Program-made: the position numbers and the translations under genes
The notes under the pieces: model-generated
What the model saw: only the letters and a program-made list of their open reading frames with translations
Database searches by the model: none
What the model was told of the DNA's origin: nothing
Source of the DNA: Elusimicrobiota bacterium
GTDB lineage: Bacteria > Elusimicrobiota > Elusimicrobia > UBA1565 > UBA9628
Direction of reading: 5' to 3'
Length of the DNA stretch: 64,000 nt
Assembly (NCBI GenBank): GCA_023249675.1
Contig: JAHFCE010000003.1
Span: 111,785 to 175,784 of the forward strand
In this document: positions 1 through 55,119 of the stretch, piece after piece
Layout of the letters: every line of letters starts with the position of its first letter
How positions within the stretch are numbered: the stretch's first letter is position 1

Positions 1-602
1 TCATCGATGTGGACAGTTTCGCGCTTGAGAACGTCAACGAGAAGACCCGCGACGCGAAAGAGAGTCCGGGCGCCACTCTGTACCTCAATATTGGCCATCT
101 CGTGACGAATCTCTCGATCGTGGAGAACGGGGTTACGCGCGTCGTGCGCGACATGTTCATTGCGGGGAGCACGATGACGAAGGCGATCATGAAGGCCTTC
201 CAGTGCGATGCCGCCAAGGCTGAGGAGCTCAAGCACTCGCGCGGCGTGTTCGTCGATCCCGAGGAGAAGGAAAAGGCGCTTGCGGACGGCGACCGCGACG
301 GCCTCGGCGTCTCGCAGGCCGTCGGCCAGGTCGCGCGCGATCTTGTCGCCGAAGTCCACCGTTCCGTCGACTTCTACCTCTCGCAGGGTCCGGACCGCTC
401 GATTGGCCGCATCATACTTGCCGGCGGCACCGCGCGCCTCAAGAATCTCGACAAGCATCTTGCGCAGGAGTTGAAGGTGCCCGTCTCGGTGCTGAATCCG
501 TTTTCTTTTGTGAAGGGCGGCGTCAACGTGCCGGAGGCGCTGTCTGCCTCGTTCGGAGTGGCGGCGGGACTCGCTTTGAGACAGAACAGGGATTGGGAAT
601 AG
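1..602 (+). CDS. pilM: Type IV pilus assembly protein PilM (actin-like ATPase fold), C-terminal ~197 aa; 5' end lies outside the window
   Basis: ORF 9..602 has no upstream stop in frame. The C-terminus ('ILAGGTARLKNLDKHLAQELKVPVSVLNPF') is typical of PilM. It is followed directly by pilN/O/P/Q. Confidence 0.85.
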   Translation, partial: IDVDSFALENVNEKTRDAKESPGATLYLNIGHLVTNLSIVENGVTRVVRDMFIAGSTMTKAIMKAFQCDAAKAEELKHSRGVFVDPEEKEKALADGDRDGLGVSQAVGQVARDLVAEVHRSVDFYLSQGPDRSIGRIILAGGTARLKNLDKHLAQELKVPVSVLNPFSFVKGGVNVPEALSASFGVAAGLALRQNRDWE

Positions 603-608
603 AGAGCG

Positions 609-1151
609 ATGATTAAGGTCAACCTCGTTCCGGCGGGAATCCTCGCCAAGGCCAAGCAGCGGCAGCTGTTGCTGCAGGCCGCGGTGCTCGGCGGCCTTAT
701 GGCTCTTGTTCTAGCGGTCGTTTCCTGCGGCCATTGGTACGGAAAGCATGCGCTTGAAATCACTCTGGCCGCCGATGAAATCGAACTCAAGCGCCTGGAC
801 CGTGTGGTCAAGCAGGTCGAGGAGCTCGAGAAGGCGGCCGCCGCCGTGCGCGCGCGTCTGAGCGTCATCGAGGACCTGCTCCTTGGACGCGCCTACTACC
901 CCGTTTTTATGTCGGAGTTCGCCCGCTCGGTTCCGGCCGGCGTCCGGGTGAACTCGATGACGACCTCAACCGTGTCGTCCGGCGCCATCAAGCTCGTGAT
1001 CTCCGCCGCTGCGAACTCGAATGAGGACATTGCGGCCTGGGTGAAGACCCTGGAGAAAAACGCCAAGTTCAGCTTGATTGAGCTTGGGGCCGTTAACGCC
1101 GCGGTGGCTTTCTATAACTTTTCGATGACGGCGACCTACACAAGTAAATAA
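609..1151 (+). CDS. pilN: Type IV pilus inner-membrane assembly protein PilN (single TM plus coiled coil)
   Basis: 180 aa with an N-terminal 'VNLVP', one TM helix and a coiled-coil periplasmic part. It sits between pilM and pilO, 6 bp after the pilM stop. Confidence 0.75.
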   Translation: MIKVNLVPAGILAKAKQRQLLLQAAVLGGLMALVLAVVSCGHWYGKHALEITLAADEIELKRLDRVVKQVEELEKAAAAVRARLSVIEDLLLGRAYYPVFMSEFARSVPAGVRVNSMTTSTVSSGAIKLVISAAANSNEDIAAWVKTLEKNAKFSLIELGAVNAAVAFYNFSMTATYTSK

Positions 1152-1152
1152 A

Positions 1153-1698
1153 ATGGCCATGCAACTGTCGAAGCAGCAGCAGCAATACCTCGGCGCCGGC
1201 GCCGTGCTGTTCGTCGTCCTCGGCGCTGTCTATGTGAAGTTCTTTTGGCTGCCCATCGCGCAGGCCAAGGCCGAGGCCACCGAGAAGATCGCTCAGATCG
1301 AGGCCAAGATCGTGAAGGCCAAGCAGCAGGCGGCCCGCCTCGAGCGCCTGCAGGCTGAAATCGCGAGCCTGAATGAGCGTGCAGCCGAGGCCGAGAAGCG
1401 GCTGCCGAAGACGAAGTCCGTGCCCGACATCCTGCTTGCGATCTCTGGGCTCGCGCAGAAGAATCGCGTGGTGATTCAGAGTTTCGCGCCGGGACCGCAG
1501 AAGAGCCAGACATACTTTATCGAGCTGGCTTATCCTCTTGCGGTGCGTGGTTCCTATCACAATATTGGCCGCTTTCTGGCTGCCCTCTCGCTCGAGGAGC
1601 GGATATTCAATGTGAGGGACATCAATTATCCATCGGCCGACGCTTTTGGGGACATGACTGTGACCCTGACCTTGCTCTCGTATCAGTACAAAGGATGA
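1153..1698 (+). CDS. pilO: Type IV pilus assembly protein PilO
   Basis: 181 aa with an N-terminal TM, a coiled coil and a C-terminal ferredoxin-like region. It starts 1 bp after the pilN stop and overlaps pilP by 4 bp. Confidence 0.75.
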   Translation: MAMQLSKQQQQYLGAGAVLFVVLGAVYVKFFWLPIAQAKAEATEKIAQIEAKIVKAKQQAARLERLQAEIASLNERAAEAEKRLPKTKSVPDILLAISGLAQKNRVVIQSFAPGPQKSQTYFIELAYPLAVRGSYHNIGRFLAALSLEERIFNVRDINYPSADAFGDMTVTLTLLSYQYKG

Positions 1699-2177
1699 TA
1701 ACCTTCGCCCTCGTTTTACTTTTCGCGATGGCCGGTCCCACGCAAGCGGGACCGGCGCCGTCACCGGCCGCGTCAACGGGCGCCATTTTGCCGATTGGAG
1801 CTTCGACGCAGACCGTGTCGAGCCTCTACACCGGCGACCGCGTGCGCGATCCCTTTCTGCCCTCCGCGATGGGCGTCACCGGCCCGCGCCGAGTCGAGGA
1901 TGCGAAGACAGCCGGCTCTATGGTCTTGGACATTCACAGCATGCTTCTGCGCGGTATCATGAAGGACCCAAAAATCGACTACGCGCTGTTCACCTCCGAG
2001 GATGGCGGCACCTACCTTTTGCGCGGCGGCAAGCTCTACAACGAACGCAATAAGCCGGTCACGGGCATCACGGGCGTCATCAAACTCAAGCAAAAGACCG
2101 TGGAGCTCATCACGTCCGATAAGGACGTTCAGGTATTTCGTCTCGGCGAAGATGAGAAAGAAAAAGAGAAGCCCTAG
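1695..2177 (+). CDS. pilP: Type IV pilus assembly protein PilP-like (signal peptide, periplasmic)
   Basis: 160 aa with a signal peptide and a beta-rich C-terminal domain ending in a Lys/Glu-rich tail. Its position between pilO and pilQ matches the canonical pilMNOPQ order. Confidence 0.6.
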   Translation: MITFALVLLFAMAGPTQAGPAPSPAASTGAILPIGASTQTVSSLYTGDRVRDPFLPSAMGVTGPRRVEDAKTAGSMVLDIHSMLLRGIMKDPKIDYALFTSEDGGTYLLRGGKLYNERNKPVTGITGVIKLKQKTVELITSDKDVQVFRLGEDEKEKEKP

Positions 2178-2190
2178 CCGCGGAGAATTT

Positions 2191-4260
2191 ATGATCAATC
2201 ACCAATTGAAGAAAATCCTGTCCGCGGCGCTCGCCGTCGTCCTCTCCGTCCCTGCGGGCGTCGTTGAGGCCTTCGCCGCCGCGCCGGCCCCCGCTGTCTT
2301 CCAGGGCGTTGAAGTTTCCGACGATTTCGTCACGATCAAGCTCAGCGCCAACGCCCCATACAACAGCTTCTTGACCCAGACGCCTCCGCGTCTCGTGCTA
2401 GAGCTTCTCGACACCAAGCACGATGGGCCGACCCAGTCCGCTCCGGGCAAGGGAACGTTCCTTGCCGGCGTGCGTTCGGGCCAGTTCGAGAAGTCGCCGC
2501 GCCTGATCACCCGTGTTGTGATGGATCTTGTGAAGATGGCGGGCTATAAGGTCGGCGCGATCTCGGGGGGGCTGACCGTTCAGCTGATCGGCTCGGTTGA
2601 TGGCGGATCCAAGAACACGGTTTTGGCGCCGGCCCCCATCCCTGTGCCGGCTCTTCCGGCCATTAGGCCCGTTATCGCCAAGCGCGCGGCTGCGGCTAAA
2701 GCCCCCGCTCCCATCGTCGAGGTTCCCGTGGCCGCTGCGCCCGCTTACATGGCGCCGGCCCCGGAACCGGAAGTGCCGAAGGCGAGACAGCGTGTCAATG
2801 TGACGGCCGCGCAGGCGATGCGGCGCGCCGGTCTCGATGGGAGCATGACCCTGGAACTCGCAGCCGCGGCTCAAAGTTCAGATATCACGAGGAGTAAGGT
2901 TGATCCTGTCGGCGAGGTCGAGGATGGGGACAAGGTCGGGCACGCGGCCGGCGGGCGCATTTTCCGCGACATCATGAGCCGTCTGCCTCGCGACATCGTG
3001 ACGCTCGATTTCGACAATACCGACATCCGCGATGTGATTCATCTGCTCGCGGCGAAGGCCAAGGTTAATATCGTGTTCGGCCCGGACGTCACCGGCTCGC
3101 TGACGTTGCATCTTACCGATGTTCCATTTAATGAGGCCTTCCGCACAGCTCTGTCCATGATGAAACTGACGACCGATCAAGTCGGCGACAATATCCTGCG
3201 CGTGATCACCCCGGCCGAACTCACCAAGCAGCGCACCACCTCGACGGCCATCACCAAGGTCTATGTCCTCAACTACGCGAAGGCAACCGAAGTCAAGACA
3301 ACGATCGATTCTGTTCGGATGGCGGAAGGCCGCAATGGCAGCTCGACCGCCGACACGAAGACGAACACCTTGATCGTGACCGACTCCCTCGAGGGCCAGC
3401 TGTCCACGGAGAACCTGATCGCGCAGATGGACCAGCGGCCGCGCCAGGTGCTCATCGAGACCAAGATCATCGAGATCAACGCGAACTCCGGCCTCAACTA
3501 CGGTGTGCAGTGGGACTATCAAAGCGCCCAGCGGGGAACAATCGGTGGCCAGAAGGGAGTCTCGCTGATCGGCACGACCTCCAATCCAGCGGCGGCCTCC
3601 AGCCCCGTCCTCAATCCCCTTGACCAGAACGCGAACACCGCCGTTGGCGCCGGCGCATCCGGCCGCGGCACGGGCGTGGCGCTCGCCGCCGACCGCGTCT
3701 TCGGCGCGCTGACCCTGGGCCGCATCACGAACAACTTCATTCTGAACGCGACCTTGACTGCGGCGGCGTCCGAGGGCAAGGCGAAGATTCTCTCCGAGCC
3801 CAAAATCGCCACGCTCAACAACCAGGCGGCGAACATCAATGTCACGACGCAGATTCCCTATGTGACCTCGAACGTGGCCTCCACCGGCGTGCAGACCCAG
3901 TCGGTTGCCTATGTAACTACTGGCATTCAGTTGACGGTCACGCCGAGCATCAACGCCGACGGCCGCATCACCCTTCAGGTCAACCCGAACGTGAGCCAGC
4001 CTTCCGCGACCGCGGCCGGCAGCACGCAGACCGGCGCTCCCGCCGTTGATTCGCGCAACGCCACTACGACCGTGCTCGTGCGCGACGGCGAGACGATTGT
4101 GATCGGCGGCCTGATTACCGACACGATGCAGGACACGATTTCCAAGGTTCCCCTGCTCGGCGACATTCCGATCCTGGGTTGGCTGTTCAAGAAGAAGACC
4201 AAGACTCGCGTACGCGCGGAGCTCCTGATCTTCGTGACGACGAGAATATTGCCGGACTAA
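2191..4260 (+). CDS. pilQ: Type IV pilus secretin PilQ (AMIN domain, Pro/Ala linker, N0/N1 and secretin domains)
   Basis: The ORF 2002..4260 most likely starts at ATG 2191, which has a GGAGAA Shine-Dalgarno 5 nt upstream and lies just after the pilP stop. The C-terminal secretin motif reads 'VLVRDGETIVIGGLI...VPLLGDIPILGWLFKKK'. The N-terminus looks like an AMIN domain. Confidence 0.9.
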   Translation: MINHQLKKILSAALAVVLSVPAGVVEAFAAAPAPAVFQGVEVSDDFVTIKLSANAPYNSFLTQTPPRLVLELLDTKHDGPTQSAPGKGTFLAGVRSGQFEKSPRLITRVVMDLVKMAGYKVGAISGGLTVQLIGSVDGGSKNTVLAPAPIPVPALPAIRPVIAKRAAAAKAPAPIVEVPVAAAPAYMAPAPEPEVPKARQRVNVTAAQAMRRAGLDGSMTLELAAAAQSSDITRSKVDPVGEVEDGDKVGHAAGGRIFRDIMSRLPRDIVTLDFDNTDIRDVIHLLAAKAKVNIVFGPDVTGSLTLHLTDVPFNEAFRTALSMMKLTTDQVGDNILRVITPAELTKQRTTSTAITKVYVLNYAKATEVKTTIDSVRMAEGRNGSSTADTKTNTLIVTDSLEGQLSTENLIAQMDQRPRQVLIETKIIEINANSGLNYGVQWDYQSAQRGTIGGQKGVSLIGTTSNPAAASSPVLNPLDQNANTAVGAGASGRGTGVALAADRVFGALTLGRITNNFILNATLTAAASEGKAKILSEPKIATLNNQAANINVTTQIPYVTSNVASTGVQTQSVAYVTTGIQLTVTPSINADGRITLQVNPNVSQPSATAAGSTQTGAPAVDSRNATTTVLVRDGETIVIGGLITDTMQDTISKVPLLGDIPILGWLFKKKTKTRVRAELLIFVTTRILPD

Positions 4261-4263
4261 GCG

Positions 4264-5625
4264 GTGCTTGCCGGACTCGTCGGGACTGTTGTCGCCTCGG
4301 GCCTCCTGCTTCGAGGCGCGTGGGATCTCTGGGCGCAGTCGTTGGTTCTTCTTGGGCTCCTGGCTGCCTCCGCGGCCTGGTTGTGCGCCCGCCTCGTGTC
4401 GGGCTGGTTGCCTCGCCCTGAGGATAGAACGTTCGGTTGGATCCTCGCGCTCGTATCCCTGTCCGCGCTGTCGGCGTTCCTGAGCCCAGTTCCGGCCTAC
4501 TCGCGCCCGGCCTGGGCGGCGTCGGCGGCGGGCCTCTCCCTGTTCCCACTTATCTCCGTTCTCGATTCCGAGGGTCGAGAGCGTGTCGAGCGTTTCCTGC
4601 GCGGGGCGGGCTGGGCATTGCTCCTGCTCGCCGTCTATCAGAGACTTCATAGCGAGAGCCGCCCCCCCGCGACATTCATTAATCAGAACGCGTTTGCCGG
4701 AGCGATCCTGCTGCTGCTGCCCATCGCGTCGCGCGCGGGTCATTGGGCGCTCGCTGGCGGCCTGCTCCTGTGTCTGTGGTGGACGCGGTCCGTCGGGGCT
4801 TGGCTCGGGCTTGCGGCCGCTTTGCTCCTGCATCGGCGCGCGGCCGGCGCGGCAGCGTTTTGGCCAGCCGCCGCCGCGGGTTTCGTCGGCCTTGTTGCCG
4901 CCTACGCCAAGTTCCAGCCGCCGGAAACTTTGCATCGCGTCGAGTGGTGGAAGGCGGCTTGGCGCATGGCGGCCGAGGCGCCCTGGCTCGGCCTCGGTCC
5001 CGGCTCGTACGCGTACGCCCTGCCGGCGTACGCTGCCGGACGCCCAGAGCTGTCGTCCGTGTTCGCGCATCAATACTTTCTCGAGACCGCCGCCGAGCGC
5101 GGCTGGCCGTACGTCCTGCTGTGGATCCTGGGGCTCGCCGTGCTGCTCAAGCCGGCACCCGCCGCGCGGCGCTTCGGACCCGTCGCGGCCCTGATCCACG
5201 GACTCGTGGATTATCCGCTCTCCGTGCCCGGCGTGTTCTGGCTTTTCTGCGCGTCGACAGCGCTCGCGGCGCCGGAGTCGGGGCGTTCTGTCAACGTCCC
5301 GCTGCGCTGGCGTCCGGTTCTGTGCGCGAGCGTTCTCATCGCGGCTTCTGCGTCCGGAATTTTCGTATGGCGAGGCTGGTCGGCCGACCGTCTGCGTGCC
5401 CAGGGGATCGAGTCGATCCGTGCGGGACGTCTGGATGAGGCGGCCAGCACGCTGTCCGCTTCCGAGGTTTTGTCGCCTCATCCGGAGGCCGCGCGCCTGC
5501 GGGCGGAGATCATCCTGGCGCGCGGCGGCTCGGCGGTCGAGGCTGCGGGGCACCTCGCGCGTGCGATCGCACTCGATCCCTATCGCGCCTCGAACCAGAA
5601 GATGCTCAGGGCTTTGCAGAGATGA
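4264..5625 (+). CDS. Polytopic membrane protein with an O-antigen ligase/Wzy_C-like domain and a C-terminal TPR-like segment; candidate O-oligosaccharyltransferase or ligase
   Basis: GTG start 3 bp after the pilQ stop. About 10 TM helices. It has a Wzy_C-like core ('WWTRSVGAWLGLAAALLL', 'HQYFLETAAERGW') and a C-terminal helical TPR-like tail. Confidence 0.6.
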   Translation: MLAGLVGTVVASGLLLRGAWDLWAQSLVLLGLLAASAAWLCARLVSGWLPRPEDRTFGWILALVSLSALSAFLSPVPAYSRPAWAASAAGLSLFPLISVLDSEGRERVERFLRGAGWALLLLAVYQRLHSESRPPATFINQNAFAGAILLLLPIASRAGHWALAGGLLLCLWWTRSVGAWLGLAAALLLHRRAAGAAAFWPAAAAGFVGLVAAYAKFQPPETLHRVEWWKAAWRMAAEAPWLGLGPGSYAYALPAYAAGRPELSSVFAHQYFLETAAERGWPYVLLWILGLAVLLKPAPAARRFGPVAALIHGLVDYPLSVPGVFWLFCASTALAAPESGRSVNVPLRWRPVLCASVLIAASASGIFVWRGWSADRLRAQGIESIRAGRLDEAASTLSASEVLSPHPEAARLRAEIILARGGSAVEAAGHLARAIALDPYRASNQKMLRALQR

Positions 5626-7581
5626 ATGAACGCTGAACGCCTTCGTATCGGTCCGGAGACCCTTGTCGCCACGGCGCTCGCGGCAGCCGTCTTGGCGCTT
5701 CTCGGCGTCGCGTGGGCGCGCGGGCTGTCGGTGTTCTGGAGCGATCTCACTTATCTGCATCACGGCTGGCGCGCCGCGCCCGCCATGCTCGTCGTGGCCG
5801 GGCGCGCGCCTCTCTGGGAGCCGGCGCTTTACTTCGGCATGCCGATGGCGGGCACGATGCAAGGCGGGCTTTTTTATCCGGTGACTCTTTTCTACTACCT
5901 GTTCGGCTTCGCGACCGCGACCGCGTTGTTTCAGGCCTTGCATCTTTTCATCGCCGGGTGGCTGTGCGCGCTGTGGCTTCGTTCCTGCCGTTTGTCCTGG
6001 GGAGCGAGCTTTGGCGGGGCCTTTCTGTTCGCTTTTGGGGGCGTAATGATCGCGCGCCTTCCCTTCCTCAATCATCTCTCGACGTTGGCCTGGGCTCCCG
6101 CGCTCGCGCTGTTCTTTAGGCGTCCCGCGCCGTTGGGCCTCGCGTTGGCGTTGATGGTTCTTGCCGGCTACCCGACCTTCATCCCGGGGTGCGCGGCTGC
6201 CGCGTGGGTCGCGGCCTATGCGGCCCGCTCCAAGCGTTGGTCTTGGAGCGTCGCCGCCATCGACTGGGTCCTGGCGGCTGTGCTCGCCGGCGCGCTCAGC
6301 GCGGCGCAGCTTCTTCCGGGTTTGGAGCTTGCGACCCATTCCCGGCGTTCCTCCGGTGTCGGCCTTGCCGAGGCGTTGACGTGGGGCTTTACGCCTGCCG
6401 ATCTGCTCCAATGGATTGGGCCGCTGGCGGTCGGACTGTCGCATTTCCGTCCGTCCATCGATTGGACGATGTGCGTTTACCTTGGACTCGTGGGCGCGGC
6501 GGCGGCGGCTTACGGCGCCTGCGTTCTGCCGCGGCGCCGGGCTCTTGTTCTCGGCGCGGCCATTGTGGGCGTCGCATTCCTGACGCTCGGAGCCTCTCAC
6601 CCGCTGTCCGGCGCGTTGTGGCGCGTCCTGCCGCCCCTGCGCTTCGTCCGTTACCCGGGCAACCTGGCTTATATCGCTCTGCTCCCGTTGGCCGCGCTCG
6701 CCGCGGCGGGCTTCTCGGACCGTCGGGCGGGGCCGGTGCTCGTGATTCTGTCGGCGTTTGAGCTATTGGCGCTCGGCCGTTGCGCGACGCCGCTCGCTCC
6801 CCGCGCCCTATTCGCCGAACCTGGCCTGCTCGTGCGGACCCTGCAGAAAAGCCAGGGGGACGCGCGTTATCTGATTTCGCCGAGGGCCTTGCAGGCGTCG
6901 AAGGGCTCAGACATCTTCGACTGGAAGCAGCGCCTTTACGGCCTGACGAATGCGCCCTATCGCTTGCGTGCGGCCGCCAATTTTGGCGAGCCTTTGGTGC
7001 CGTCATCCTCCTATGCGGTGATGGACGCGTTGTTGAGTCTGCCGAGCGCCGACGCGGCTGCGGGCTGGATGCCGTGGATTGGGGCCGCGCGCCTGCTGAC
7101 CCCAGAACCGGCGACCTCGCCGCTGCTCACAGCCGAGACACGTTCTCTTTGGGATATCTCGAAATTGCGCGCAAGTCCGGTCTCGCTCGCCTATCAATTG
7201 ACGCCGCAGGATGGCGCGGCCCTGTCGGTGGCGTGGCCGGCGATTCCGCCGGACGCCGCCCGTTCGGCGCTCGAGGTGCGCCGTCCGCGCGAGGACCGTT
7301 TTGAAGTGTCCGGCGCAGGCGCGGGCTGGGCGTACGTCGCGGAGCCGCGCTTTCCGGGCTGGACGACCGTGCTCTCTGTTCCCTCGGGAGAGCGGCGCGT
7401 GACGCCCGAGCCGGCGCTGGGCGCCTTCCAGAAAGTTGAGACCCCGGCCGGTCCTTGGACCTTGCGCTGGCGCTATGAGCCGCAGCCGTGGCGGTTCGGG
7501 CTGCTTGCGACGTGGGCGGCGTGGATAGTCCTGGCGGCCTATTGGTATCATCGAACTCTCGCCTTAGGAGGGATTCAATGA
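5626..7581 (+). CDS. YfhO-family GT-C fold membrane glycosyltransferase (paralog 1)
   Basis: 651 aa polytopic protein. The N-terminal loop motif 'PLWEPALYFGMPMAGTMQGGLFYP' resembles the YfhO signature. Its ATG abuts the preceding TGA. A large C-terminal periplasmic domain follows. Confidence 0.6.
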   Translation: MNAERLRIGPETLVATALAAAVLALLGVAWARGLSVFWSDLTYLHHGWRAAPAMLVVAGRAPLWEPALYFGMPMAGTMQGGLFYPVTLFYYLFGFATATALFQALHLFIAGWLCALWLRSCRLSWGASFGGAFLFAFGGVMIARLPFLNHLSTLAWAPALALFFRRPAPLGLALALMVLAGYPTFIPGCAAAAWVAAYAARSKRWSWSVAAIDWVLAAVLAGALSAAQLLPGLELATHSRRSSGVGLAEALTWGFTPADLLQWIGPLAVGLSHFRPSIDWTMCVYLGLVGAAAAAYGACVLPRRRALVLGAAIVGVAFLTLGASHPLSGALWRVLPPLRFVRYPGNLAYIALLPLAALAAAGFSDRRAGPVLVILSAFELLALGRCATPLAPRALFAEPGLLVRTLQKSQGDARYLISPRALQASKGSDIFDWKQRLYGLTNAPYRLRAAANFGEPLVPSSSYAVMDALLSLPSADAAAGWMPWIGAARLLTPEPATSPLLTAETRSLWDISKLRASPVSLAYQLTPQDGAALSVAWPAIPPDAARSALEVRRPREDRFEVSGAGAGWAYVAEPRFPGWTTVLSVPSGERRVTPEPALGAFQKVETPAGPWTLRWRYEPQPWRFGLLATWAAWIVLAAYWYHRTLALGGIQ

Positions 7582-12557: not shown

Positions 12558-12563
12558 TCGAAC

Positions 12564-15084: not shown

Positions 15085-15101
15085 TGGCCCATTTTACTAC
15101 A

Positions 15102-16298: not shown

Positions 16299-16299
16299 C

Positions 16300-17004
16300 A
16301 TGGCGCCGAGCGAGGCCTTCGATTTGACGGTGGTGGTGCCCGCGCTCAACGAGGAGGCCTCTCTGCGTCAGGTTCTGCCGCGCCTGCGGGAGACCTTCCA
16401 GCGCCTGAGCGTGCGCGGCGAGATTCTCGTCGTGGACGGTCGTTCGAAGGACGCGACGGTCGCCGTCGCCGAAGCGGGCGGCGCGCGCGTGTTCACCCAG
16501 AGAGGCCGCGGCCTGGGCGGAGCCCTGCGCGAGGGCCTTCTGGCCGCGGCCGCCCCCTGGATCGCCATCGTGGACGCCGACGGCTCGCACCCGCCCGAGG
16601 TTTTGGCGGACATGTGGAGCAGGAGGAACGAGGCCGACCTCATCATTGCCTCTCGGTACGTCCCGGGGGGGTCGGCTGTGATGGGACTCGCGCGCCAGGT
16701 TCTGAGTCGTTCGCTGAACCTGGTCTCGTGCTATGTACTCGATCTGCCCGCGCGCGATTCCTCCGGCGGCTTCCGCCTGTATCGCGCCGCGCTCGCCCGT
16801 GCGGCATGCGCGGACTCCGCCGCAAACGACTTTACCGTCCAACAGGAGCTGCTCGTCGCCGTTCTATCGCGCGGCGGCCGAGTTTTGGAGGTTCCATTCC
16901 GCTACGAGTCCCGTATCGATGGCGCATCCAAGGCCTCGGCCGTGCGCCTGGCGCCGGCGTATATTCGCATGCTGCTCAAGCTCCGGGCCCGAAGACACGC
17001 ATGA
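16300..17004 (+). CDS. GT2 polyprenyl-phosphate sugar synthase (DPM1/ArnC/GtrB-like), soluble type
   Basis: 'VVVPALNEE...VVDGRSKD...VDADGSHPPE' is the GT-A DXD region typical of Dpm1/ArnC. It starts 1 bp after the DegT stop. Confidence 0.75.
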   Translation: MAPSEAFDLTVVVPALNEEASLRQVLPRLRETFQRLSVRGEILVVDGRSKDATVAVAEAGGARVFTQRGRGLGGALREGLLAAAAPWIAIVDADGSHPPEVLADMWSRRNEADLIIASRYVPGGSAVMGLARQVLSRSLNLVSCYVLDLPARDSSGGFRLYRAALARAACADSAANDFTVQQELLVAVLSRGGRVLEVPFRYESRIDGASKASAVRLAPAYIRMLLKLRARRHA

Positions 17005-17696
17005 CGACTTTGACGCGCCTGGAGACGCTTTCCACGGCCGACCGATTCAATGACGAAGTGTGGAACAAAGTGCAGTCCTTCATTGGGGCCGACATCCTGG
17101 AGGTCGGCATGGGCATCGGAATCTTCACGGAGAAGCTGCTGAGCCGGGGGAAGGTCTGCGGCGTGGACATCGCCCCCGAATTCGTGGAAGTAGCGCGCCG
17201 TCGTCTCGGTGAGCGGCGGGGCTTTTCCTCTCTTGTCGCCGATATGGGGGGCGCCGTGTTGCCCGACTCCCTGCGCGCTCACGCCTTTGATACCATCGTC
17301 TGTATGAACGTTCTCGAGCATATCGAAGACGATCGCGGGACATTGTCGCGTTTTCGCGGCCTGCTCAGGCCGGGGGGCAAGCTCGTGCTCGTGGTGCCCG
17401 CTTACCGATGGCTGTACAATCCGCTGGATGCCCACGACGGCCATTTTCGGCGCTACGAGCGCGCGGAACTCAACGAGAGGCTTCGGACCGCCGGTTTTGA
17501 CCTCATCCATGAGTCGCGATTCAATTTATTCGGCATCGTCGGCTGGTTTCTCAATGGAACGATTTTGCGCCGCCAAGATCTGCCGTCGGAGCAGATGGGG
17601 CTGTTTAACAAGGTCGCCCCGTTTCTTTTTTGGCTTGAACATCTGATCGGCCCGCCTCTCGGCCTCTCGCTTCTCGCCGTCGGGGCCAGGCCGTGA
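17001..17696 (+). CDS. Class I SAM-dependent methyltransferase (Methyltransf_11/12-like)
   Basis: 'ILEVGMGIGIFTEKL' is motif I. The ATG at 17001 makes an ATGA overlap. The upstream ORF extension 16614..17000 is rejected. Confidence 0.75.
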   Translation: MTTLTRLETLSTADRFNDEVWNKVQSFIGADILEVGMGIGIFTEKLLSRGKVCGVDIAPEFVEVARRRLGERRGFSSLVADMGGAVLPDSLRAHAFDTIVCMNVLEHIEDDRGTLSRFRGLLRPGGKLVLVVPAYRWLYNPLDAHDGHFRRYERAELNERLRTAGFDLIHESRFNLFGIVGWFLNGTILRRQDLPSEQMGLFNKVAPFLFWLEHLIGPPLGLSLLAVGARP

Positions 17697-18850
17697 ACGA
17701 AAGTCTTTCCATTGTCATTCCGGCCTACAACGAAGAAGACTCTGTTGACGGCATATTAAAGCGCTGCCTCGAGGCGAGGGCTGTGCTGATGAAGGATGCG
17801 GGGCTTTCCGGAGTGGAAGTCGTGATTGTCGATGACGGCTCCCGTGACAGGACGCAGGAGAGGGCCTCCCGCTGGACCGAGGCTAAACTGGTCGTCCATG
17901 AGAAGAATAAGGGCTATGGCGCCGCGCTAATGACCGGCTTTCGCGCTTCTTCGGGCGATCTTCTGTCGTTTCTCGATGCGGACGGCACCTGCGATCCCCT
18001 GGCTTTCAAGGATCTCATACTCGCCCTCCGCCGCGAGAAGGCGGATATGGCGGTCGGAGCTCGTTTGCATAGGGACTCCGAGATGCCCATCATCAGAGCC
18101 TTTGGCAACCGCCTGTACGCTCTTTTGCTGCAAAGCCTGACCGGCAGGCGTGTGACCGACGCCGCGAGCGGCATGCGCGTATTCAAGCGCGCGCTCCTGC
18201 CGCGCCTGGCTCCCCTGCCGACGGGCCTGCACTTCACGCCGGCGATGACTGCACGCGTCGTCTGCATGGGCGCTCTCTTGATCGAGCGCCCGATTCCTTA
18301 TTCCGAGCGCGTCGGTCGGTCGAAGCTCTCCGTCTTGCGCGACGGCGTGCGCTTCCTGCGCGTGATCCTCGGCACCGTCTTCGCCTACTTCCCGATGAGA
18401 GTGTTCGCTCCTTTAGCCGCCGCATGCTTTGCGTTGGCGGCGGGCCTGGTCCTTATGCCTGTGCGCGTCTACCTACGCGTCTCGATGCTTGAGGACTGGA
18501 TGATTTACCGCCTGCTCACCGTGCTGACATTGTCGGTGTGCGGAGCGATCTTTGCCGCGATCGGCTTGCTCGCGCAAAAAGCCTCGAACGCCGCCCTTGG
18601 GCGGCCGGGCTCGTGGCTGGACCATCCGTCTGTGCGCGAGGCGTCGGGCTTGGCCGGCGGCGTGCTGTGGTTGAGCGGCGTCGGCGTCAATTGGCCGACC
18701 GCGACTGAGTACGCAATGACCGGGCACATCACTCGTCACTGGGCCTGGGTGCTCATCGGCGCGCTGGCCGTTATCTGCGGCACGGTCCTTATTTCACTGT
18801 CGATCGCGCTCGGCGCTTTCGCGCATCTGCCTTCCCGAGAGGACGCGTGA
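17693..18850 (+). CDS. GT2 polyprenyl-phosphate glycosyltransferase with C-terminal transmembrane helices (GtrB/ArnC/CsbB-like)
   Basis: 'LSIVIPAYNEE...VVIVDDGSRD...FLDADGTCDP', followed by 3-4 C-terminal TM helices. GTG start overlapping the upstream stop. Confidence 0.8.
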   Translation: MNESLSIVIPAYNEEDSVDGILKRCLEARAVLMKDAGLSGVEVVIVDDGSRDRTQERASRWTEAKLVVHEKNKGYGAALMTGFRASSGDLLSFLDADGTCDPLAFKDLILALRREKADMAVGARLHRDSEMPIIRAFGNRLYALLLQSLTGRRVTDAASGMRVFKRALLPRLAPLPTGLHFTPAMTARVVCMGALLIERPIPYSERVGRSKLSVLRDGVRFLRVILGTVFAYFPMRVFAPLAAACFALAAGLVLMPVRVYLRVSMLEDWMIYRLLTVLTLSVCGAIFAAIGLLAQKASNAALGRPGSWLDHPSVREASGLAGGVLWLSGVGVNWPTATEYAMTGHITRHWAWVLIGALAVICGTVLISLSIALGAFAHLPSREDA

Positions 18851-19827
18851 GCTTCTGGACCCGCAAGAAGGTTCTTGTCGCTGGGGGTGGCGGTTTTATT
18901 GGCAGTCACGTGGTTGAGCGGCTCATCCGGGAGCACCGCGGAGTCCGCGTGACCGTGGCCGCCCGCATGACGCCTGAGAACAAGCGCAATCTCGCGGCCG
19001 TCATCAAGGACGTCCGCATTATGAAGGCCGATCTGCGCGATCCTGCAGTCTGCCGCCGCGCCTGCAAGGGCCAGGACGTGGTTCTCAACCTCGCCGGCGT
19101 CATCGGCGGGGTCGGCTACAACAGCCGACATCATGCCAGCTTGTTTCGCGACAACATGTCTCTTGCCATTAACATGATCGAGGCCGCGCGTCTTGAGGGG
19201 GTCTCCCGCTACCTCGTTGTGAGCACAGCCTGCGTTTATCCGCGCAACTGCGCCATTCCCACGCCGGAGACGGAAGGGTTTCTCGATGAGCCGGAGAAAA
19301 CGAATAGGGGATATGGATGGGCCAAACGCATGGCCGAGTACCTGGGCAAAGCGTACGCCGATGAGTATGGCATGGAGATCGCGATCGTGCGTCCCTACAA
19401 TGCTTACGGTCCGCGCGATCATTTCGACCCGGAGAAGTCCCATGTCATCGCGGCCCTTGTGCGCCGCGTCTGCATGGGGGAGAACCCGCTGACGGTCTGG
19501 GGAGACGGCAGATCGACGCGCGCGTTCTTGTATGCCGAGGACTTCGCGCGCGGCCTTCTCGCTGCGGCTGCAAAGCATCCGAAGGCCGATCCGGTCAACA
19601 TCGGCTCCTCCGATGAGGTCTCAATCAAGGAGCTGGCCAAGGCCGTCTTGCGGGCGGCCGGAGCCGAAAAAATGAAGCTCGTGTTCGATCCTTCCCAACC
19701 TTCGGGCCAGCCCCGGCGGGCCTGCGACACGACGAAGTCCAAGACAGTGCTCGGCTTTACGGCAACGACATCTCTTGATGAGGGCCTGCGGCGCACGGTC
19801 GCGTGGTACCGGGAGAACTTGCTGTGA
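18847..19827 (+). CDS. NAD-dependent epimerase/dehydratase (extended SDR; UDP-GlcA decarboxylase / GDP-fucose synthase-like)
   Basis: It has the 'VAGGGGFIGSHV' Rossmann motif, the catalytic 'YGWAK' motif and 'RPYNAYGPRD'. Confidence 0.8.
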   Translation: MSFWTRKKVLVAGGGGFIGSHVVERLIREHRGVRVTVAARMTPENKRNLAAVIKDVRIMKADLRDPAVCRRACKGQDVVLNLAGVIGGVGYNSRHHASLFRDNMSLAINMIEAARLEGVSRYLVVSTACVYPRNCAIPTPETEGFLDEPEKTNRGYGWAKRMAEYLGKAYADEYGMEIAIVRPYNAYGPRDHFDPEKSHVIAALVRRVCMGENPLTVWGDGRSTRAFLYAEDFARGLLAAAAKHPKADPVNIGSSDEVSIKELAKAVLRAAGAEKMKLVFDPSQPSGQPRRACDTTKSKTVLGFTATTSLDEGLRRTVAWYRENLL

Positions 19828-20552
19828 GAGGCAAGAGACTTTTGGTCCTGCTGACCTTCAACGAGGCCGAGGCCCTGCCTAAAATTTTCGACCGACTTCC
19901 ATTGTCCGCGGCCGATGAAGTTCTCGCCGTGGACGGCGGCTCGAAGGACGGCACGATTGAGTTCCTGCGGTCGAAGGGTCTGAAGGTCCTCAATCAACCG
20001 CGTCCCGGCCGGGGCGTGGCTTTCCGCTTGGCGCTTGAGAGCACGGACGCCGATACGATCTGCTACTACAGCCCTGACGGCAATGAGGACCCCGGCGACA
20101 TTCCAAAAATATTCGAGAAGATCGAAGCGGAAGGCCAGGATCTCGTCGTCGCCTCGCGCATGATGAACGGGGCTTACAATGAGGAGGACGTCCACTGGTG
20201 GCGCCCGCGCAAGTGGGTCAACCAGCTCTTCACGCTGGCGGCCAACCTGCTCTGGAACCGCGGGCCTTACGTGGAGGACACGATCAACGGCTTTCGCGCG
20301 GTGCGCGCCGATTCGCTGCGCCGCTGCGCTTGCGATGCCGACGGCTTTCCGATCGAGTACCAGATGTCGATTCGCATGATGAAGCTTGGATGCGTGATCG
20401 GCGAGATGCCGACGCATGAGTACCCGCGCCTCGGGGGGCGGAGCACCGCCGAATCGTGGCCCACGGGAGTGATCTTCGTCAAAACCCTCCTGCGCGAGAT
20501 GTCGATGGGCCACCGCGTCGGGCGCAATGGAACGGTCGGCGGCCATGGCTGA
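19803..20552 (+). CDS. GT2 glycosyltransferase (DPM1-like, soluble)
   Basis: 'LLVLLTFNEAEAL...VLAVDGGSKDGT' is a GT-A fold motif. The start may be GTG 19824, which would overlap the upstream stop. Confidence 0.7.
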   Translation: MVPGELAVRGKRLLVLLTFNEAEALPKIFDRLPLSAADEVLAVDGGSKDGTIEFLRSKGLKVLNQPRPGRGVAFRLALESTDADTICYYSPDGNEDPGDIPKIFEKIEAEGQDLVVASRMMNGAYNEEDVHWWRPRKWVNQLFTLAANLLWNRGPYVEDTINGFRAVRADSLRRCACDADGFPIEYQMSIRMMKLGCVIGEMPTHEYPRLGGRSTAESWPTGVIFVKTLLREMSMGHRVGRNGTVGGHG

Positions 20553-23136
20553 CCAACGCCGCGACCTGCGCGCCGAGGCGGAAACCGCCGCTCATCGAGC
20601 GATCATCGCCTGGCTTCCGCTCCTCTACCTGCTGATCTCCTCCCTCTTCTTTCTGCGCACTTACGACTCCGCGCAGGTGAAGATATCGATGATGCAGATG
20701 GGCGGTCTCGGGCTGCTGACGTTGTGGCTCGTGCGCCTGGCTGTCGCCGGTCGCCATGCCCTCAACAAGGAAGACTTGGTCTGCCTGTCCCCGTTTCTCG
20801 CCTGCCTTCTTTGGGGCGTGTTCTCCTACCTGAAGTCGCCGTATCACATGGCATCCACCGACTTCTTCCTGCGTCACCTCTTCTACATGATCGTGGCGCT
20901 GATCACGATTTATGAGTTTGACGAGGCGGCGGTTTCACGCCTTTTCAAGATTATGATCGGGACCGCTTGGATTGCGATCGGCTACGGCGCCCTTCAGTTC
21001 GTGGACAACGCGGCCTTCCCGCGCGGCATCGGCAAGGGCATCGACCCCTTCGTTTGGCGCGGTGCGTTCGGCGACCGCGTATTCTCAACGTATGGAAACC
21101 CGAATTTCTACGGCGACTTCCTCGTCATCATGTTCCCAATCCTGCTCACGCAGTGGTTCAAGACGCGGCGCTGGAGCCTTGTCGTCTTGATTGGCCTTCT
21201 CCTGCTCAGCCTCGTCAAGACGGGCACGAAGGGCGCGTGGCTTGGCTTCGCGCTGGTCTGCGCGATCTTCGGGGTGATCGCCTTCGTCTTCTTCCCGGAC
21301 CAAACCAAGAACTATCGCAAGCAGGTCCTTGGCATCACGGGAGGTTTGGTTCTGGGCTTCATCGGTTACACGGCCAAGGATCTGACCTCGCGCGTCGTCT
21401 CGATCAATTTCCGTCTGTTCACCTGGGAGGCGACCTGGGAGATGATCCGCACCCAGCCATGGACCGGCACGGGCATTGGCTCCTTCCCTCCGATCTACCC
21501 GGCCTTTCGCCGTCCCGCGATCTTTCATATTGAGGGCAAGCACAACACCGAGACCGATCACGCCGAGAACGAATACCTCGAGCAGTTTTTCGACAACGGC
21601 ATCTTGGGTTTCGGCATCTTCCTCTGGCTCATCGTCAGCACCTTGGTCGTTGGCTTCCGCTCGTTAGGCCAGCTCACGATGACGGCCATGCTCAAGGACG
21701 GCCGTCCGCCGCCGCGCGCCTTCGACCTGATTGGCGTGGTCGTCTCGTTCATGGGCATGCTCGGGCACAACTGCTTTGACGTCAGCCTGCGCTTTGTGTC
21801 CTCCGGAGTATATTTGGGTCTGCTGTCTGGCCTCATCGTCAACGTCGCGCGCGGCAAGGCGCTCTACGAGCTCCATGCGCGGCCGGCGGTCCCGGCCGCC
21901 GACCCCGCCGTGGAGGCGTCCCTGTGGGCCACCGTGTCGGAGATGCTGATTTGGCCCCTGCGACTTGCCGCTGCCGGCGGCGTCCTCTACCTCGCTTTCT
22001 TCAAGGGCTGGGCTCAGCTGCGCCAGGTTCCGTTCGGCGGCATGTTCGGAGAGTTCTGCCTGCTCCAGGGCCCGCTCTCGCGCGTGCCCGGAGGCGGGGA
22101 GCTGCTGCAATGGTGGCTTGCCTGGGGCGTCTTCGCGGGGTGCATGCTTTGGCTCGGCGGGGTCATGATCCGCCTGTGTCTTCTCGCGGAGAATCCCGTC
22201 GTGTCCTTGATCGTGCTCGCGATGCTCTCGCCCCTGTACCAGTTTTGGGGCTACTTCAAGGCGGACATTCACCATAATATCGCGATCTATTTTTCGAAAG
22301 AACGCCAATGGGAGCCGGCCGTCGCCAACTACTTGATCGTCAACAAACTCAACCCAGATTTCGTGATGTCGAAGTACTTTCTTGGCAACGTCTTCAACGA
22401 CCGTTTCACCATGACGAAAGCGTATCTCCCCAATTGGGGCGATACGGGCAACGTCCCGCACGACGACTACGAGCGCGCGATGTATTGGTACGACGAAGTC
22501 CGCAAGCTTGCGCCGAACTACGTTCAGATGCATCACCAGATCGGCAACCTGCACCTGCGCCGGGCCGAGTGGGCGACCAACAACGGGCGTCCCGATGAGG
22601 CGGAAAAATATCTCGAGATGGCGTTGGTCCGCTTCAAGCTCTACTCTCAGGTTGACCCTGTCTTCGCGCCGAACTACTACCGTATGGCGCAGGTCTATAT
22701 GATCCGCAAACAGTACGATCTCGCGGTGAAGACCTACCAGGCCCTCATCGACGCGCAGCGCTGCGCCGCAGACCCGTCCTTGCTCGCGAAGGCCTGGCGG
22801 CGCAACACCATCCTCTCCTATCAGCCCTATGAGCAGGTGAACGGTCGGTGGATTCATCGTCACGTCGGCGCGGATTACCCGCATGAGTCCGCCGAGGTTT
22901 ATACGAGCATGGCCAACGCCTTGTTCATGGGCGGCCGCTTCGAGGAGGCCGAGCGGGCCTATCGCACCGCCCTCTCATATGACCCGGCCTTCGATATGGC
23001 CAAGAAGAATCTTGATGTCACCTACCACCGCGCCCAGCAAGAGGGCCGTCTCAAGCCGGCGACGGCGAATGCCGGCGCAAAGGCCGTTCCTGGAACGCCG
23101 GTTCAGACGGGCTGGATGATTATTCCGAAGAAGTAG
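20527..23136 (+). CDS. Large polytopic membrane protein with an O-antigen ligase/polymerase (Wzy_C) domain and C-terminal TPR repeats
   Basis: 869 aa. 'TKGAWLGFALV...HNTETDHAENEYLEQFFDNGILGFGIFLWL' is the Wzy_C core. The C-terminal ~300 aa are TPR-like. An alternative start is ATG 20545. Confidence 0.7.
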   Translation: MERSAAMADQRRDLRAEAETAAHRAIIAWLPLLYLLISSLFFLRTYDSAQVKISMMQMGGLGLLTLWLVRLAVAGRHALNKEDLVCLSPFLACLLWGVFSYLKSPYHMASTDFFLRHLFYMIVALITIYEFDEAAVSRLFKIMIGTAWIAIGYGALQFVDNAAFPRGIGKGIDPFVWRGAFGDRVFSTYGNPNFYGDFLVIMFPILLTQWFKTRRWSLVVLIGLLLLSLVKTGTKGAWLGFALVCAIFGVIAFVFFPDQTKNYRKQVLGITGGLVLGFIGYTAKDLTSRVVSINFRLFTWEATWEMIRTQPWTGTGIGSFPPIYPAFRRPAIFHIEGKHNTETDHAENEYLEQFFDNGILGFGIFLWLIVSTLVVGFRSLGQLTMTAMLKDGRPPPRAFDLIGVVVSFMGMLGHNCFDVSLRFVSSGVYLGLLSGLIVNVARGKALYELHARPAVPAADPAVEASLWATVSEMLIWPLRLAAAGGVLYLAFFKGWAQLRQVPFGGMFGEFCLLQGPLSRVPGGGELLQWWLAWGVFAGCMLWLGGVMIRLCLLAENPVVSLIVLAMLSPLYQFWGYFKADIHHNIAIYFSKERQWEPAVANYLIVNKLNPDFVMSKYFLGNVFNDRFTMTKAYLPNWGDTGNVPHDDYERAMYWYDEVRKLAPNYVQMHHQIGNLHLRRAEWATNNGRPDEAEKYLEMALVRFKLYSQVDPVFAPNYYRMAQVYMIRKQYDLAVKTYQALIDAQRCAADPSLLAKAWRRNTILSYQPYEQVNGRWIHRHVGADYPHESAEVYTSMANALFMGGRFEEAERAYRTALSYDPAFDMAKKNLDVTYHRAQQEGRLKPATANAGAKAVPGTPVQTGWMIIPKK

Positions 23137-54959: not shown

Positions 54960-55119
54960 CGCCTCAGTATGCCCGGCGCACCCCGCGCCCGCGAGAGTCT
55001 TGCGGCCCAAACCGTCTAGGTCTGATATCTGAACGCAAACGCCCCGAAAGACCCATGCCTTTTAAGTCGGTTGCTGGTAGCATACGCTGTCGCTGAAATC
55101 CAAACTTTGAGGTTTTAAA

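Follow-up and report, generated by a model that had tools for sequence, protein, structure and literature searches.

A probable surface-glycan assembly island within the pilMNOPQ operon of an uncultivated Elusimicrobiota clade

The stretch of DNA analyzed here (hereafter the window) comprises 64,000 nucleotides from an Elusimicrobiota bacterium (assembly GCA_023249675.1, contig JAHFCE010000003.1, positions 111,785 to 175,784). It opens inside a type IV pilus operon, pilMNOPQ, and the secretin gene pilQ is followed directly by genes of glycan-assembly kinds. Positions 1-24142 were mapped by listing of open reading frames (ORFs), inspection of start codons, and Pfam and NCBIfam scans, which gave the 21 genes of Table 1. 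PilM, PilN, PilO, and PilQ, the last with AMIN, N0, N1, and secretin domains, stand in the gene order of the PilMNOPQ subcomplex of type IVa pili. The window edge cuts pilM, which in relatives is the first gene of the operon and encodes 380 amino acids (aa). The PilP-like ORF gave a Pfam PilP match below threshold (E 0.087); it has a signal-peptide-like N-terminus, no lipobox Cys was seen in it, and an ORF is kept at this place between pilO and pilQ in relatives. An earlier sequence-only reading of the stretch had named a series of domains behind pilQ, and the scans recovered these: Wzy_C twice, LPG_synthase_TM, Glycos_transf_2 three times (plus one on the minus strand), DegT_DnrJ_EryC1, Epimerase of the short-chain dehydrogenase/reductase (SDR) type, Asn_synthase, and two S-adenosylmethionine (SAM) methyltransferases.

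Table 1. Genes of the pilMNOPQ-glycan locus (window coordinates)
Gene	Position	Strand	Assignment	Supporting match
pilM	1..602	+	pilM, 3' part (cut by window edge); FtsA-like ATPase fold	Pfam PilM_2 E 4.1e-23
pilN	609..1151	+	pilN; single N-terminal transmembrane (TM) helix	Pfam PilN E 8.8e-8
pilO	1153..1698	+	pilO	Pfam PilO E 6.2e-24
pilP-like	1695..2177	+	PilP-like ORF, 160 aa	Position and size only
pilQ	2191..4260	+	pilQ secretin; N0/STN	Pfam Secretin E 3.6e-54, Secretin_N E 1.1e-9, AMIN E 3.6e-7
g6	4264..5625	+	Wzy_C-family membrane protein (O-antigen ligase / polymerase / O-oligosaccharyltransferase superfamily) with C-terminal tetratricopeptide repeat (TPR)-like tail	Pfam Wzy_C 48 bits (cut-off 31.7); TPR_16 weak (E 0.008)
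g7	5626..7581	+	Divergent YfhO-superfamily GT-C glycosyltransferase (predicted)	
g8	7578..9419	+	Second divergent YfhO-superfamily GT-C glycosyltransferase (predicted)	
g9	9416..10408	+	LPG_synthase_TM / "flippase-like domain" membrane protein	Pfam LPG_synthase_TM 132.7 bits, full profile
g10	10405..11430	+	SAM methyltransferase with N-terminal Trm112-like zinc ribbon	Methyltransf_11 E 3.1e-17; Trm112p E 2.2e-7
g11	11427..12557	+	Cytoplasmic glycosyltransferase of family GT4 (GT-B)	Glyco_trans_1_4 E 5.5e-33; Glyco_transf_4 E 6.9e-19
g12	12564..14486	+	AsnB-type glutamine amidotransferase	Asn_synthase E 2.5e-98; passes TIGR01536
g13	14473..15084	-	MarC/NAAT-family transporter	Pfam MarC E 1.4e-53, full length; TIGR00427 191.8 bits
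g14	15102..16298	+	DegT/DnrJ/EryC1 sugar aminotransferase	Pfam E 1.7e-93
g15	16300..17004	+	Short soluble GT2, AglJ / dolichyl-P-hexose-synthase / PpgS-like	Glycos_transf_2 E 5.5e-20
g16	17001..17696	+	SAM-dependent methyltransferase	Methyltransf_12/23/11, E ~1e-16
g17	17693..18850	+	Polyprenyl-phosphate GT2 (ArnC/GtrB/DPMS type)	PDB ArnC 9bhc E 1.9e-20
g18	18847..19827	+	SDR sugar epimerase/reductase	Pfam Epimerase E 1.3e-58
g19	19824..20552	+	Short soluble GT2, AglJ / dolichyl-P-hexose-synthase-like	Glycos_transf_2 E 2.2e-14
g20	20527 (or 20545)..23136	+	Second Wzy_C protein, large C-terminal TPR domain	Wzy_C 57.6 bits; TPR_2 E 2.2e-15
g21	23120..24142	-	GT2 (TuaG/EpsD-like)	NCBIfam TuaG 3.5e-26, EpsD 2.4e-24, both under cut-offs

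The glycan genes are packed tightly against the pilus genes and against each other, as in an operon. Three base pairs (bp) separate the pilQ stop from the start of g6, and nine junctions are 4-bp ATGA or GTGA overlaps (pilO/P, g7/8, g8/9, g9/10, g10/11, g15/16, g16/17, g17/18, and g18/19; the g15/16 overlap uses the ATG at 17001). The remaining co-directional gaps measure 0-13 bp, with the exception of g19/g20, which overlap by 8 or 26 bp. Such packing suggests co-transcription. The earlier description of pilMNOPQ running straight into 15 co-directional genes, mostly joined by 4-bp overlaps or gaps of at most 6 bp, was right about the direct run and the tight junctions but not about the unbroken co-directional series, as the MarC gene lies on the minus strand. 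The plus-strand genes thus fall into two blocks, pilM to asnB (g12; 12 genes) and degT (g14) to g20 (7 genes), and the glycan genes behind pilQ number seven plus seven with the one opposite-strand gene between them. MarC overlaps asnB tail to tail by 14 bp and starts 17 bp from the divergent degT, so that the degT promoter would lie inside the MarC coding sequence, or else transcription from asnB would run on into degT, crossing MarC in antisense. One transcript from pilM to Wzy would have to cross MarC in the same way. The gene is kept at the same site in relatives, on the minus strand in all except L015, and its spacing to degT there is 60-120 bp as against 17 bp in the window.

The right edge of the island is probably at 24142, where the convergent GT2 gene g21 sits on the minus strand. 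Within 23120-24732 of that strand, this gene overlaps an upstream glutathione peroxidase gene by 4 bp, and it appears to be co-transcribed with that redox enzyme and housekeeping genes. On the left, the locus of relatives extends past the window's edge, with glycan-type genes going on upstream of pilM. A foreign origin of g6-g10 was considered from their high GC content (67.5%) and T-rich coding strand. The membrane-protein genes of the window (4264-11430 and 50620-52824) have 67-70% GC as against 61-62%, with T/(A+T) of 0.64-0.68 on the coding strand, and the same composition in the SulP transporter gene (70% GC) points to an effect of membrane-protein coding; the idea was dropped.

The association with pilQ recurs throughout the clade. 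A scan of one genome per GTDB species with a g7 alignment returned 40 orthologous loci, all in Elusimicrobiota-type metagenome-assembled genomes, and one distant YfhO. Upstream sequence was long enough for a judgment in 35 loci, and 34 of these show the order pilM-N-O-P-Q-g6-g7-g8-g9-g10-g11, down to a g7 identity of 43-44%. Junctions in these relatives, as estimated, are similarly close, with a median pilQ-g6 gap of ~7 bp, a g6/g7 overlap of ~10 bp, and overlaps of 4-11 bp at the junctions that follow. Since both order and spacing recur across about 40 species, the pilQ link is not a matter of chance, and the synteny comparison that the sequence-only reading had proposed, on whether the island always follows pilQ, comes out largely in its favor. 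The downstream half behaves differently: the degT block is kept only in relatives whose DegT is at least 80% identical, and more distant relatives carry other sugar genes instead. The conserved fusion to the pil genes is that of the core g6-g11 and not of the variable degT-to-g20 half. The locus consists of a conserved machinery part (g6 to g11 or g12) and a variable sugar-specific part, as is usual in surface-glycan loci, and the variable downstream content fits a locus of that type.

Three annotated relatives carry a conserved, divergent operon directly upstream of pilM (L043:58-3605, L044:1-3429, L045:1-3497), encoding a HAD phosphatase, NTP_transf_3, an unknown 280-aa protein, and a class-III aminotransferase, with a GFO_IDH_MocA oxidoreductase in addition in L043, the only flank that reaches so far. 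By its domain content it looks like a pathway for a nucleotide-activated amino sugar or aminocyclitol, which would place pilMNOPQ between two glycan-type operons in these three relatives. The first of them also holds an apparent 997-aa fusion of g8 and g9 (L043, ~13300-13950), which was considered as a Rosetta-stone link and discarded as an assembly artefact, the region containing an N-run and a frameshifted stretch. Another relative, L005 (CALRXP010000062.1), is labelled "Candidatus Endomicrobium trichonymphae"; its proteins are 72-90% identical to those of the high-GC, free-living-type Elusimicrobiota of the window, and the label is probably wrong. By a prepilin-motif search, pilin genes are lacking in the window and in 47 of the 48 related loci. 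The sole pilin gene among the 48 is a pilin-like ORF with a prepilin signature (GFTLLEM) at ~5150-5700 of L027, between pilO and pilP.

To place these neighborhoods in a wider context, PilQ loci were collected by a metagenome scan with a PilQ alignment, which yielded 80 loci. Only three, the three closest, have a g6-like gene behind pilQ; tblastn and custom hidden Markov model scans found no comparable genes downstream of PilQ in the 77 loci of other lineages. In 10 of these 77, also checked with Pfam, the downstream gene was unrelated (RNase G, a PilT-like ATPase, chorismate synthase, an aroK/aroB fusion, a histidine kinase, an M24 peptidase, and others). The link of pilQ to glycan genes is thus specific to the clade, and genes behind pilQ are often functionally unrelated to pili. 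The proteobacterial pilMNOPQ-aroK-aroB arrangement, where conserved non-pilus genes follow pilQ in the same operon, serves as a null model here, with the difference that the aro genes are unrelated to pili whereas the Elusimicrobiota genes are envelope-glycan kinds that modify pili elsewhere. One distant locus is of particular use (L048, 3040-8188; PilQ ~40% identical; GC 50.5% vs 63.6% in the window): there the stop codon of pilQ and the start of a Wzy_C gene overlap, a second Wzy_C gene, of the Wzy_C-TPR kind, comes next, and g7 and g8 are lacking. This suggests that the pairing of pilQ with Wzy_C predates, and outlasts, the link to the GT-C genes. Our search of the literature returned nothing relevant on a pilMNOPQ/O-antigen-ligase link or on pilus glycosylation in Elusimicrobia.

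The first gene behind pilQ, g6, carries H-Q-X9-G-X2-Y, and its His-Gln-X9-Gly part may correspond to the periplasmic-loop motif of Wzy_C/WaaL-type proteins. The C-terminal 80 aa are conserved within the g6 family, and a crude hydropathy and positive-inside analysis gave no decision between the periplasmic and the cytoplasmic side for this tail. Single-sequence and profile searches with g6 returned no PDB sequence match. The second Wzy_C protein, g20, matches the IctB family over 370 aa, the WaaL structure 7tpg weakly (E 0.002), and Tgl faintly (E 0.002). The secretin pilotins PilF, PilW, and Tgl are TPR proteins, and g6 could be pictured as helping PilQ to assemble in the manner of a pilotin. 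Its TPR part would then be held in the membrane by the Wzy_C-type domain, and the genes downstream would form an unrelated glycan module. Its position directly behind pilQ in nearly all loci, its conserved TPR-like tail, and the Tgl match of g20 would agree with this. However, we consider it improbable, as the TPR signal of g6 is weak, known pilotins are outer-membrane lipoproteins and not inner-membrane proteins with 10-12 TM helices, and the Wzy_C catalytic region of g6 scores above the Pfam threshold with the His-Gln motif present.

Sequence alone does not separate WaaL ligases from PglL-type protein oligosaccharyltransferases, although the PglL_A motif distinguishes PglL from WaaL (PMC3643930). 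For g6 and g20, it likewise does not tell ligase, polymerase, and oligosaccharyltransferase apart. PglL_A (PF15864) was not reported in g6 or g20 at E <= 0.01. TfpO/PilO also lacks this motif, so its absence does not exclude O-oligosaccharyltransferase activity.

The next two genes, g7 and g8, each encode a protein of ~10 hydrophobic helices, a soluble C-terminal region of 200-230 aa predicted to be periplasmic, and a final helix. The two families are distant paralogs over their full length (hhalign probability 99.9%, E 1.7e-34). In predicted models the multi-TM core can be superimposed on solved GT-C enzymes, and the C-terminal domains are rich in beta strands and not TPR; Pfam likewise gave no TPR match. 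Profile searches of the g7 and g6 families against PDB sequences gave nothing useful, the GT-C fold being seen by fold comparison only. The usual catalytic position of GT-C enzymes is an Asp in the loop after TM1. Such a residue is present in both proteins, as Asp36 of g8 (FNHGDL), invariant in 20 sequences, and as Asp40 of g7 (WxDLTYLH), conserved in at least 90%; judging from the positively charged N-terminus, the loop would face the periplasm.

Neither window protein reaches the gathering threshold of Pfam YfhO (PF09586; g7 E 2.5, g8 no match), and NCBIfam is also blank. The superfamily comes into view through relatives: 4 of 17 g7 orthologs match Pfam YfhO, a Sumerlaeota intermediate (L042) passes its threshold, and the g8-family profile retrieved 30,891 cluster representatives, of which 48 of 50 sampled matches (E 1e-43 to 1e-57) are Pfam YfhO. 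Profile matches, paralogy, and the Asp after TM1 together place g7 and g8 in the YfhO superfamily, and on profiles and predicted models we class them as shortened, divergent GT-C glycosyltransferases. The GT-C assignment made earlier from the letters was in this way borne out by structure prediction and profile searches, but not by Pfam YfhO on the window proteins themselves.

Among the candidates for donor synthesis, g17 is the clearest. Its residues 4-296, membrane part included, align with solved structures of ArnC. It also aligns with DPMS (5mlz) and GtrB (5ekp) and ends in three hydrophobic helices; by these alignments it is a polyprenyl-phosphate sugar synthase. The short GT2 proteins g15 (NCBIfam AglJ 5.8e-25, PpgS 3.3e-11) and g19 (AglJ 3.9e-22) stay under the cut-offs and have no TM helix, and a donor-synthase role for them is tentative. 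Of the polyprenyl-phosphate monosaccharide synthases claimed earlier, g17 is therefore the one confirmed over its full length. A flippase-like protein had been claimed too, and g9, a member of LPG_synthase_TM with 4-bp overlaps on both sides, is present (NCBIfam TIGR00374 "flippase-like domain", 35.6 bits, under the 43.2 cut-off), although it is not of the GtrA/GtcA type. Gene packing is too tight to leave room for a hidden GtrA-like protein.

The sugar-modification genes fared better, the DegT aminotransferase, the SDR, AsnB, and two methyltransferases all being recovered by Pfam. The nearest NCBIfam models are RfbH, PseC, and WecE-type for g14 and GDP-L-fucose synthase-like for g18, all under cut-offs. 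An Arn (L-Ara4N) pathway was considered for the degT-GT2-SDR genes and rejected, since the SDR is Fcl-like and not ArnA-like, no formyltransferase, deformylase, or ArnT is present, and scores fall far under the NCBIfam cut-offs. The best NCBIfam matches of g11 (PEP-CTERM/XrtA-system glycosyltransferase stp2) and g12 (XrtA/PEP-CTERM-system amidotransferase, 632.7 bits, cut-off 816.9) raised an association with PEP-CTERM and exosortase; both are under cut-offs, no exosortase and no significant PrsT match were seen, and this was also set aside.

The comparison with relatives bears on the kind of glycan. At least 18 related loci carry a ~497-aa Polysacc_synt (Wzx/MOP-type) gene, mostly between the GT4 gene g11 and asnB (e.g., L043:17074-18564). 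The statement that Wzx is lacking consequently holds for the window and for a few other loci, namely the closest relatives and L040, and fails for the loci just mentioned; the statement on Wzz holds for the 21 genes of the island and the scanned rest of the window, and that on Wza for the island, where no outer-membrane polysaccharide export gene was found. With Wzx in relatives and two Wzy_C proteins, a classical Wzx/Wzy/WaaL reading is a real possibility, and the earlier preference for a pilus-related target over classical O-antigen is weakened. The locus could then be an ordinary lipopolysaccharide (LPS) O-antigen or envelope-polysaccharide locus sharing an operon with pilMNOPQ, in which g6 and g20 would act as WaaL and Wzy and the relatives' Wzx would flip the repeat unit. 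A Gtr-like system for side branches would then consist of g7, g8, g9, and g17, and the pilQ link would be inherited synteny.

This resembles Wzx/Wzy/WaaL loci with Gtr-type modification in its two Wzy_C proteins, GT4, GT2s, aminotransferase, SDR, amidotransferase, and methyltransferases, in the Wzx-like gene of relatives, and in the conserved machinery part beside downstream sugar-specific genes that are as variable as those of O-antigen loci. For O-antigens, logic of the GtrABC type is well established (PMC11127046). The weak WaaL match of g20 and the frequency of unrelated pilQ neighbors agree with it as well. It differs from such loci in that the window lacks Wzz, an initiating transferase, and Wzx, no LPS-core genes lie nearby, g6 and g20 have TPR tails, and the locus is embedded in pilMNOPQ. 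To our knowledge, TPR tails are not a feature of characterized WaaL or Wzy proteins. Further, the pilQ-Wzy_C pair survives where the rest of the locus differs, which pure inherited synteny predicts less well. We regard this reading as quite possible, though short of probable.

The missing Wza-type exporter could also be explained if the PilQ secretin were the outer-membrane exit for the island's polysaccharide. The island indeed has no outer-membrane polysaccharide export or co-polymerase gene, and in relatives glycan genes lie on both sides of pilMNOPQ. But we know of no precedent for PilQ in this role, PilM, PilN, PilO, and PilQ are ordinary components of type IVa pili, AMIN and N0 domains included, one relative (L027) has a pilin gene inside the operon, and exporter genes may lie elsewhere in the genome. 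We consider such an exit very improbable indeed.

Alternatively, the island may be dedicated to pilus glycosylation, g6 acting as a TfpO/PglL-like O-oligosaccharyltransferase and g7 and g8 as TfpW-like GT-Cs on pilins or PilQ at the PilMNOPQ complex, with co-transcription securing stoichiometry and co-localization. The close pilQ-Wzy_C junction of 34 of the 35 species speaks for this, as does its retention in the distant GC-50% lineage though other neighbors changed; such genes were not found at the other-lineage PilQ loci scanned, and L027 has its pilin gene inside the pilMNOPQ operon. Known pilin glycosylases are Wzy_C enzymes and a GT-C enzyme. As in the TfpO/PilO and PglL systems of Pseudomonas, Neisseria, and Acinetobacter, a Wzy_C inner-membrane protein is linked to type IV pilus genes and would be predicted to use a flipped undecaprenyl-PP-linked glycan; unlike there, the link is to the secretin gene and not to a pilin gene, the protein has an extra TPR-like C-terminal tail, and the PglL_A motif was not detected.

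TfpW, the GT-C pilin arabinosyltransferase of P. aeruginosa group IV, shares with g7 and g8 a size of ~650 aa, the predicted use of a polyprenyl-phosphate sugar, a type IV pilus context, and a TPR in the system. It differs in carrying the periplasmic TPR itself and in lying directly behind pilA, whereas in the window no pilA is adjacent, the TPR-like tails are on the Wzy_C proteins g6 and g20, and the C-terminal domains of g7 and g8 are rich in beta strands, both proteins resembling YfhO and not ArnT/Emb. Against a dedicated pilus system stand also the lack of a pilin gene in the window and in 47 of the 48 related loci, when the known tfpO, tfpW, and most pglL genes adjoin pilin genes (a common though not obligatory arrangement), the unrelated conserved genes common behind pilQ in other phyla (aroK/aroB, chorismate synthase), and a locus with g7-g11 but without pil genes (L035). 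Characterized YfhO enzymes, moreover, target teichoic acids and not proteins (PMC5836110, PMC7389260). We hold dedicated pilus glycosylation as a tentative possibility.

The analysis shows the identities and folds of the gene products, the close packing as in an operon, and an order from pilQ through g6 to g11 that is conserved across the clade, and from these we infer that the locus is probably a surface-glycan assembly island built into the pilMNOPQ operon in this one clade and running a two-tier lipid-linked glycan pathway. Its conserved core, g6-g12 directly behind pilQ, would be served by a species-variable supply module, g14-g21. On the cytoplasmic side, the GT4 protein g11 would build a lipid-linked sugar or oligosaccharide, which the methyltransferase g10 and the AsnB-type amidotransferase g12 would modify. 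Lipid-linked intermediates would be moved outward by the Wzx-type flippase in relatives, or by g9. In the periplasm, the Wzy_C/TPR protein g6 would transfer or polymerize the glycan en bloc, and the YfhO-type GT-Cs g7 and g8 would add single sugars from polyprenyl-phosphate-sugar donors. The DegT, SDR, and methyltransferase of the supply module would make specific sugars; lipid-phosphate donors would come from the ArnC-like g17 and possibly from g15 and g19, and the module would contribute the second Wzy_C/TPR protein g20. Three-component extracytoplasmic glycosylation offers a precedent for the single-sugar periplasmic branch (PMC11127046, PMC8035078), and Wzy_C O-oligosaccharyltransferases offer one for en-bloc transfer (PMC3643930).

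The closest models for the single-sugar branch are CsbB-GtcA-YfhO, which acts on teichoic acid in Bacillus and Listeria, and GtrA-GtrB-GtrC, which acts on O-antigen in Salmonella and Shigella. The likeness lies in g17, a GT2 polyprenyl-phosphate synthase that has membrane helices, in g9, a membrane protein so placed that it could act as flippase, and in g7 and g8, YfhO-superfamily GT-Cs with a conserved Asp after TM1. Unlike in these systems, the flippase candidate is an LPG_synthase_TM (MprF-flippase-like) protein and not GtrA/GtcA, the GT-Cs are two paralogs that Pfam does not recognize and that fall ~200 aa short of a typical YfhO, the GT2 is encoded apart from them in the variable second operon, and the host is a diderm Elusimicrobiota with the genes in a pilMNOPQ operon.

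Several results weigh against the two-tier island pathway. The only firm polyprenyl-phosphate GT2, g17, belongs to the variable half, beyond the opposite-strand gene and ~8 kb from g7-g8-g9, which are always adjacent to each other; in distant relatives, a scan of the flanks did not find it. The island has no flippase of the GtrA/GtcA or MATE type, and g9 is not of such a type, its role being a guess. A Wzx-like gene was not found anywhere in the 64-kb window, either by tblastn with the relatives' gene or by Pfam, and the g11-g12 gap measures 6 bp. The 21-gene island has no initiating phosphoglycosyltransferase, Wzz, or outer-membrane polysaccharide exporter, which may lie elsewhere in the genome. 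The exceptional locus L035 (1-14784) has g7-g11 preceded by a GT4 and proteins without a Pfam family; its 7.7 kb of upstream sequence contains neither g6 nor any pil gene. Finally, promoter and terminator scans over 1-20000 stayed at the level of shuffled sequence and were uninformative on operon boundaries.

As to the acceptor, LPS core or another envelope glycan, only co-expressed with the pilus, comes near to an evenly balanced call, and a type IV pilus-associated protein, pilin or PilQ itself, is a credible prospect that falls somewhat short of that; what is left of our expectation goes to something else. We consider it rather unlikely that the secretin complex is co-assembled with a glycosylation machine of its own, made up of a TPR-bearing Wzy_C oligosaccharyltransferase, two YfhO-type GT-Cs, and an MprF-like flippase, that would glycosylate pilins or the secretin where the pilus is assembled.

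The scanned remainder of the window is housekeeping in content (dapA, dapF, pfk, dnaE, TldD, and others), and no pilin, pilB/C/T, or LPS genes were found there. By its named homologs, the organism belongs with the uncultivated, high-GC Elusimicrobiota. Two patatin-like phospholipases are encoded at 29906-30859 (minus strand) and 39225-41255 (plus strand), one of them fused to a cyclic-nucleotide-binding domain, and the SulP/STAS transporter at 50620-52824 (plus strand) also has such a domain; this suggests unusually broad cyclic-nucleotide control in the organism. Three ORFs (529, 248, and 729 aa) at 41227-43559 and 52821-55010, all on the minus strand, have no Pfam family at E <= 1e-5.

All parts of the island are of known kinds, and the conserved operon-level fusion of pilMNOPQ with a Wzy_C/TPR and YfhO-type module in a diderm phylum appears to be undescribed. 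Two Pfam-blank families of ~600-aa "hypothetical proteins" that occur throughout the clade can now be annotated as YfhO-superfamily GT-C glycosyltransferases, a recognition that is new. If only inherited synteny is at work, the locus would be another surface-glycan locus and a caution that pilQ neighbors, like aroK/aroB, need not be pilus genes. If the pilus has a glycosylation machine of its own, g7 and g8 would be the first YfhO-type enzymes with a protein or pilus acceptor and the first with an assigned role in a diderm, and a new gene-context rule for pilus glycosylation, pilQ-linked and not pilin-linked, would follow. If the coupling is functional, it would offer a testable way into the question of how these uncultivated Elusimicrobiota of groundwater coat their pili or surface. 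YfhO-type GT-Cs would gain a first candidate role outside Gram-positive teichoic acid glycosylation, and there would be reason to regard MprF-flippase-like (LPG_synthase_TM) proteins as carrying lipid-linked sugars.

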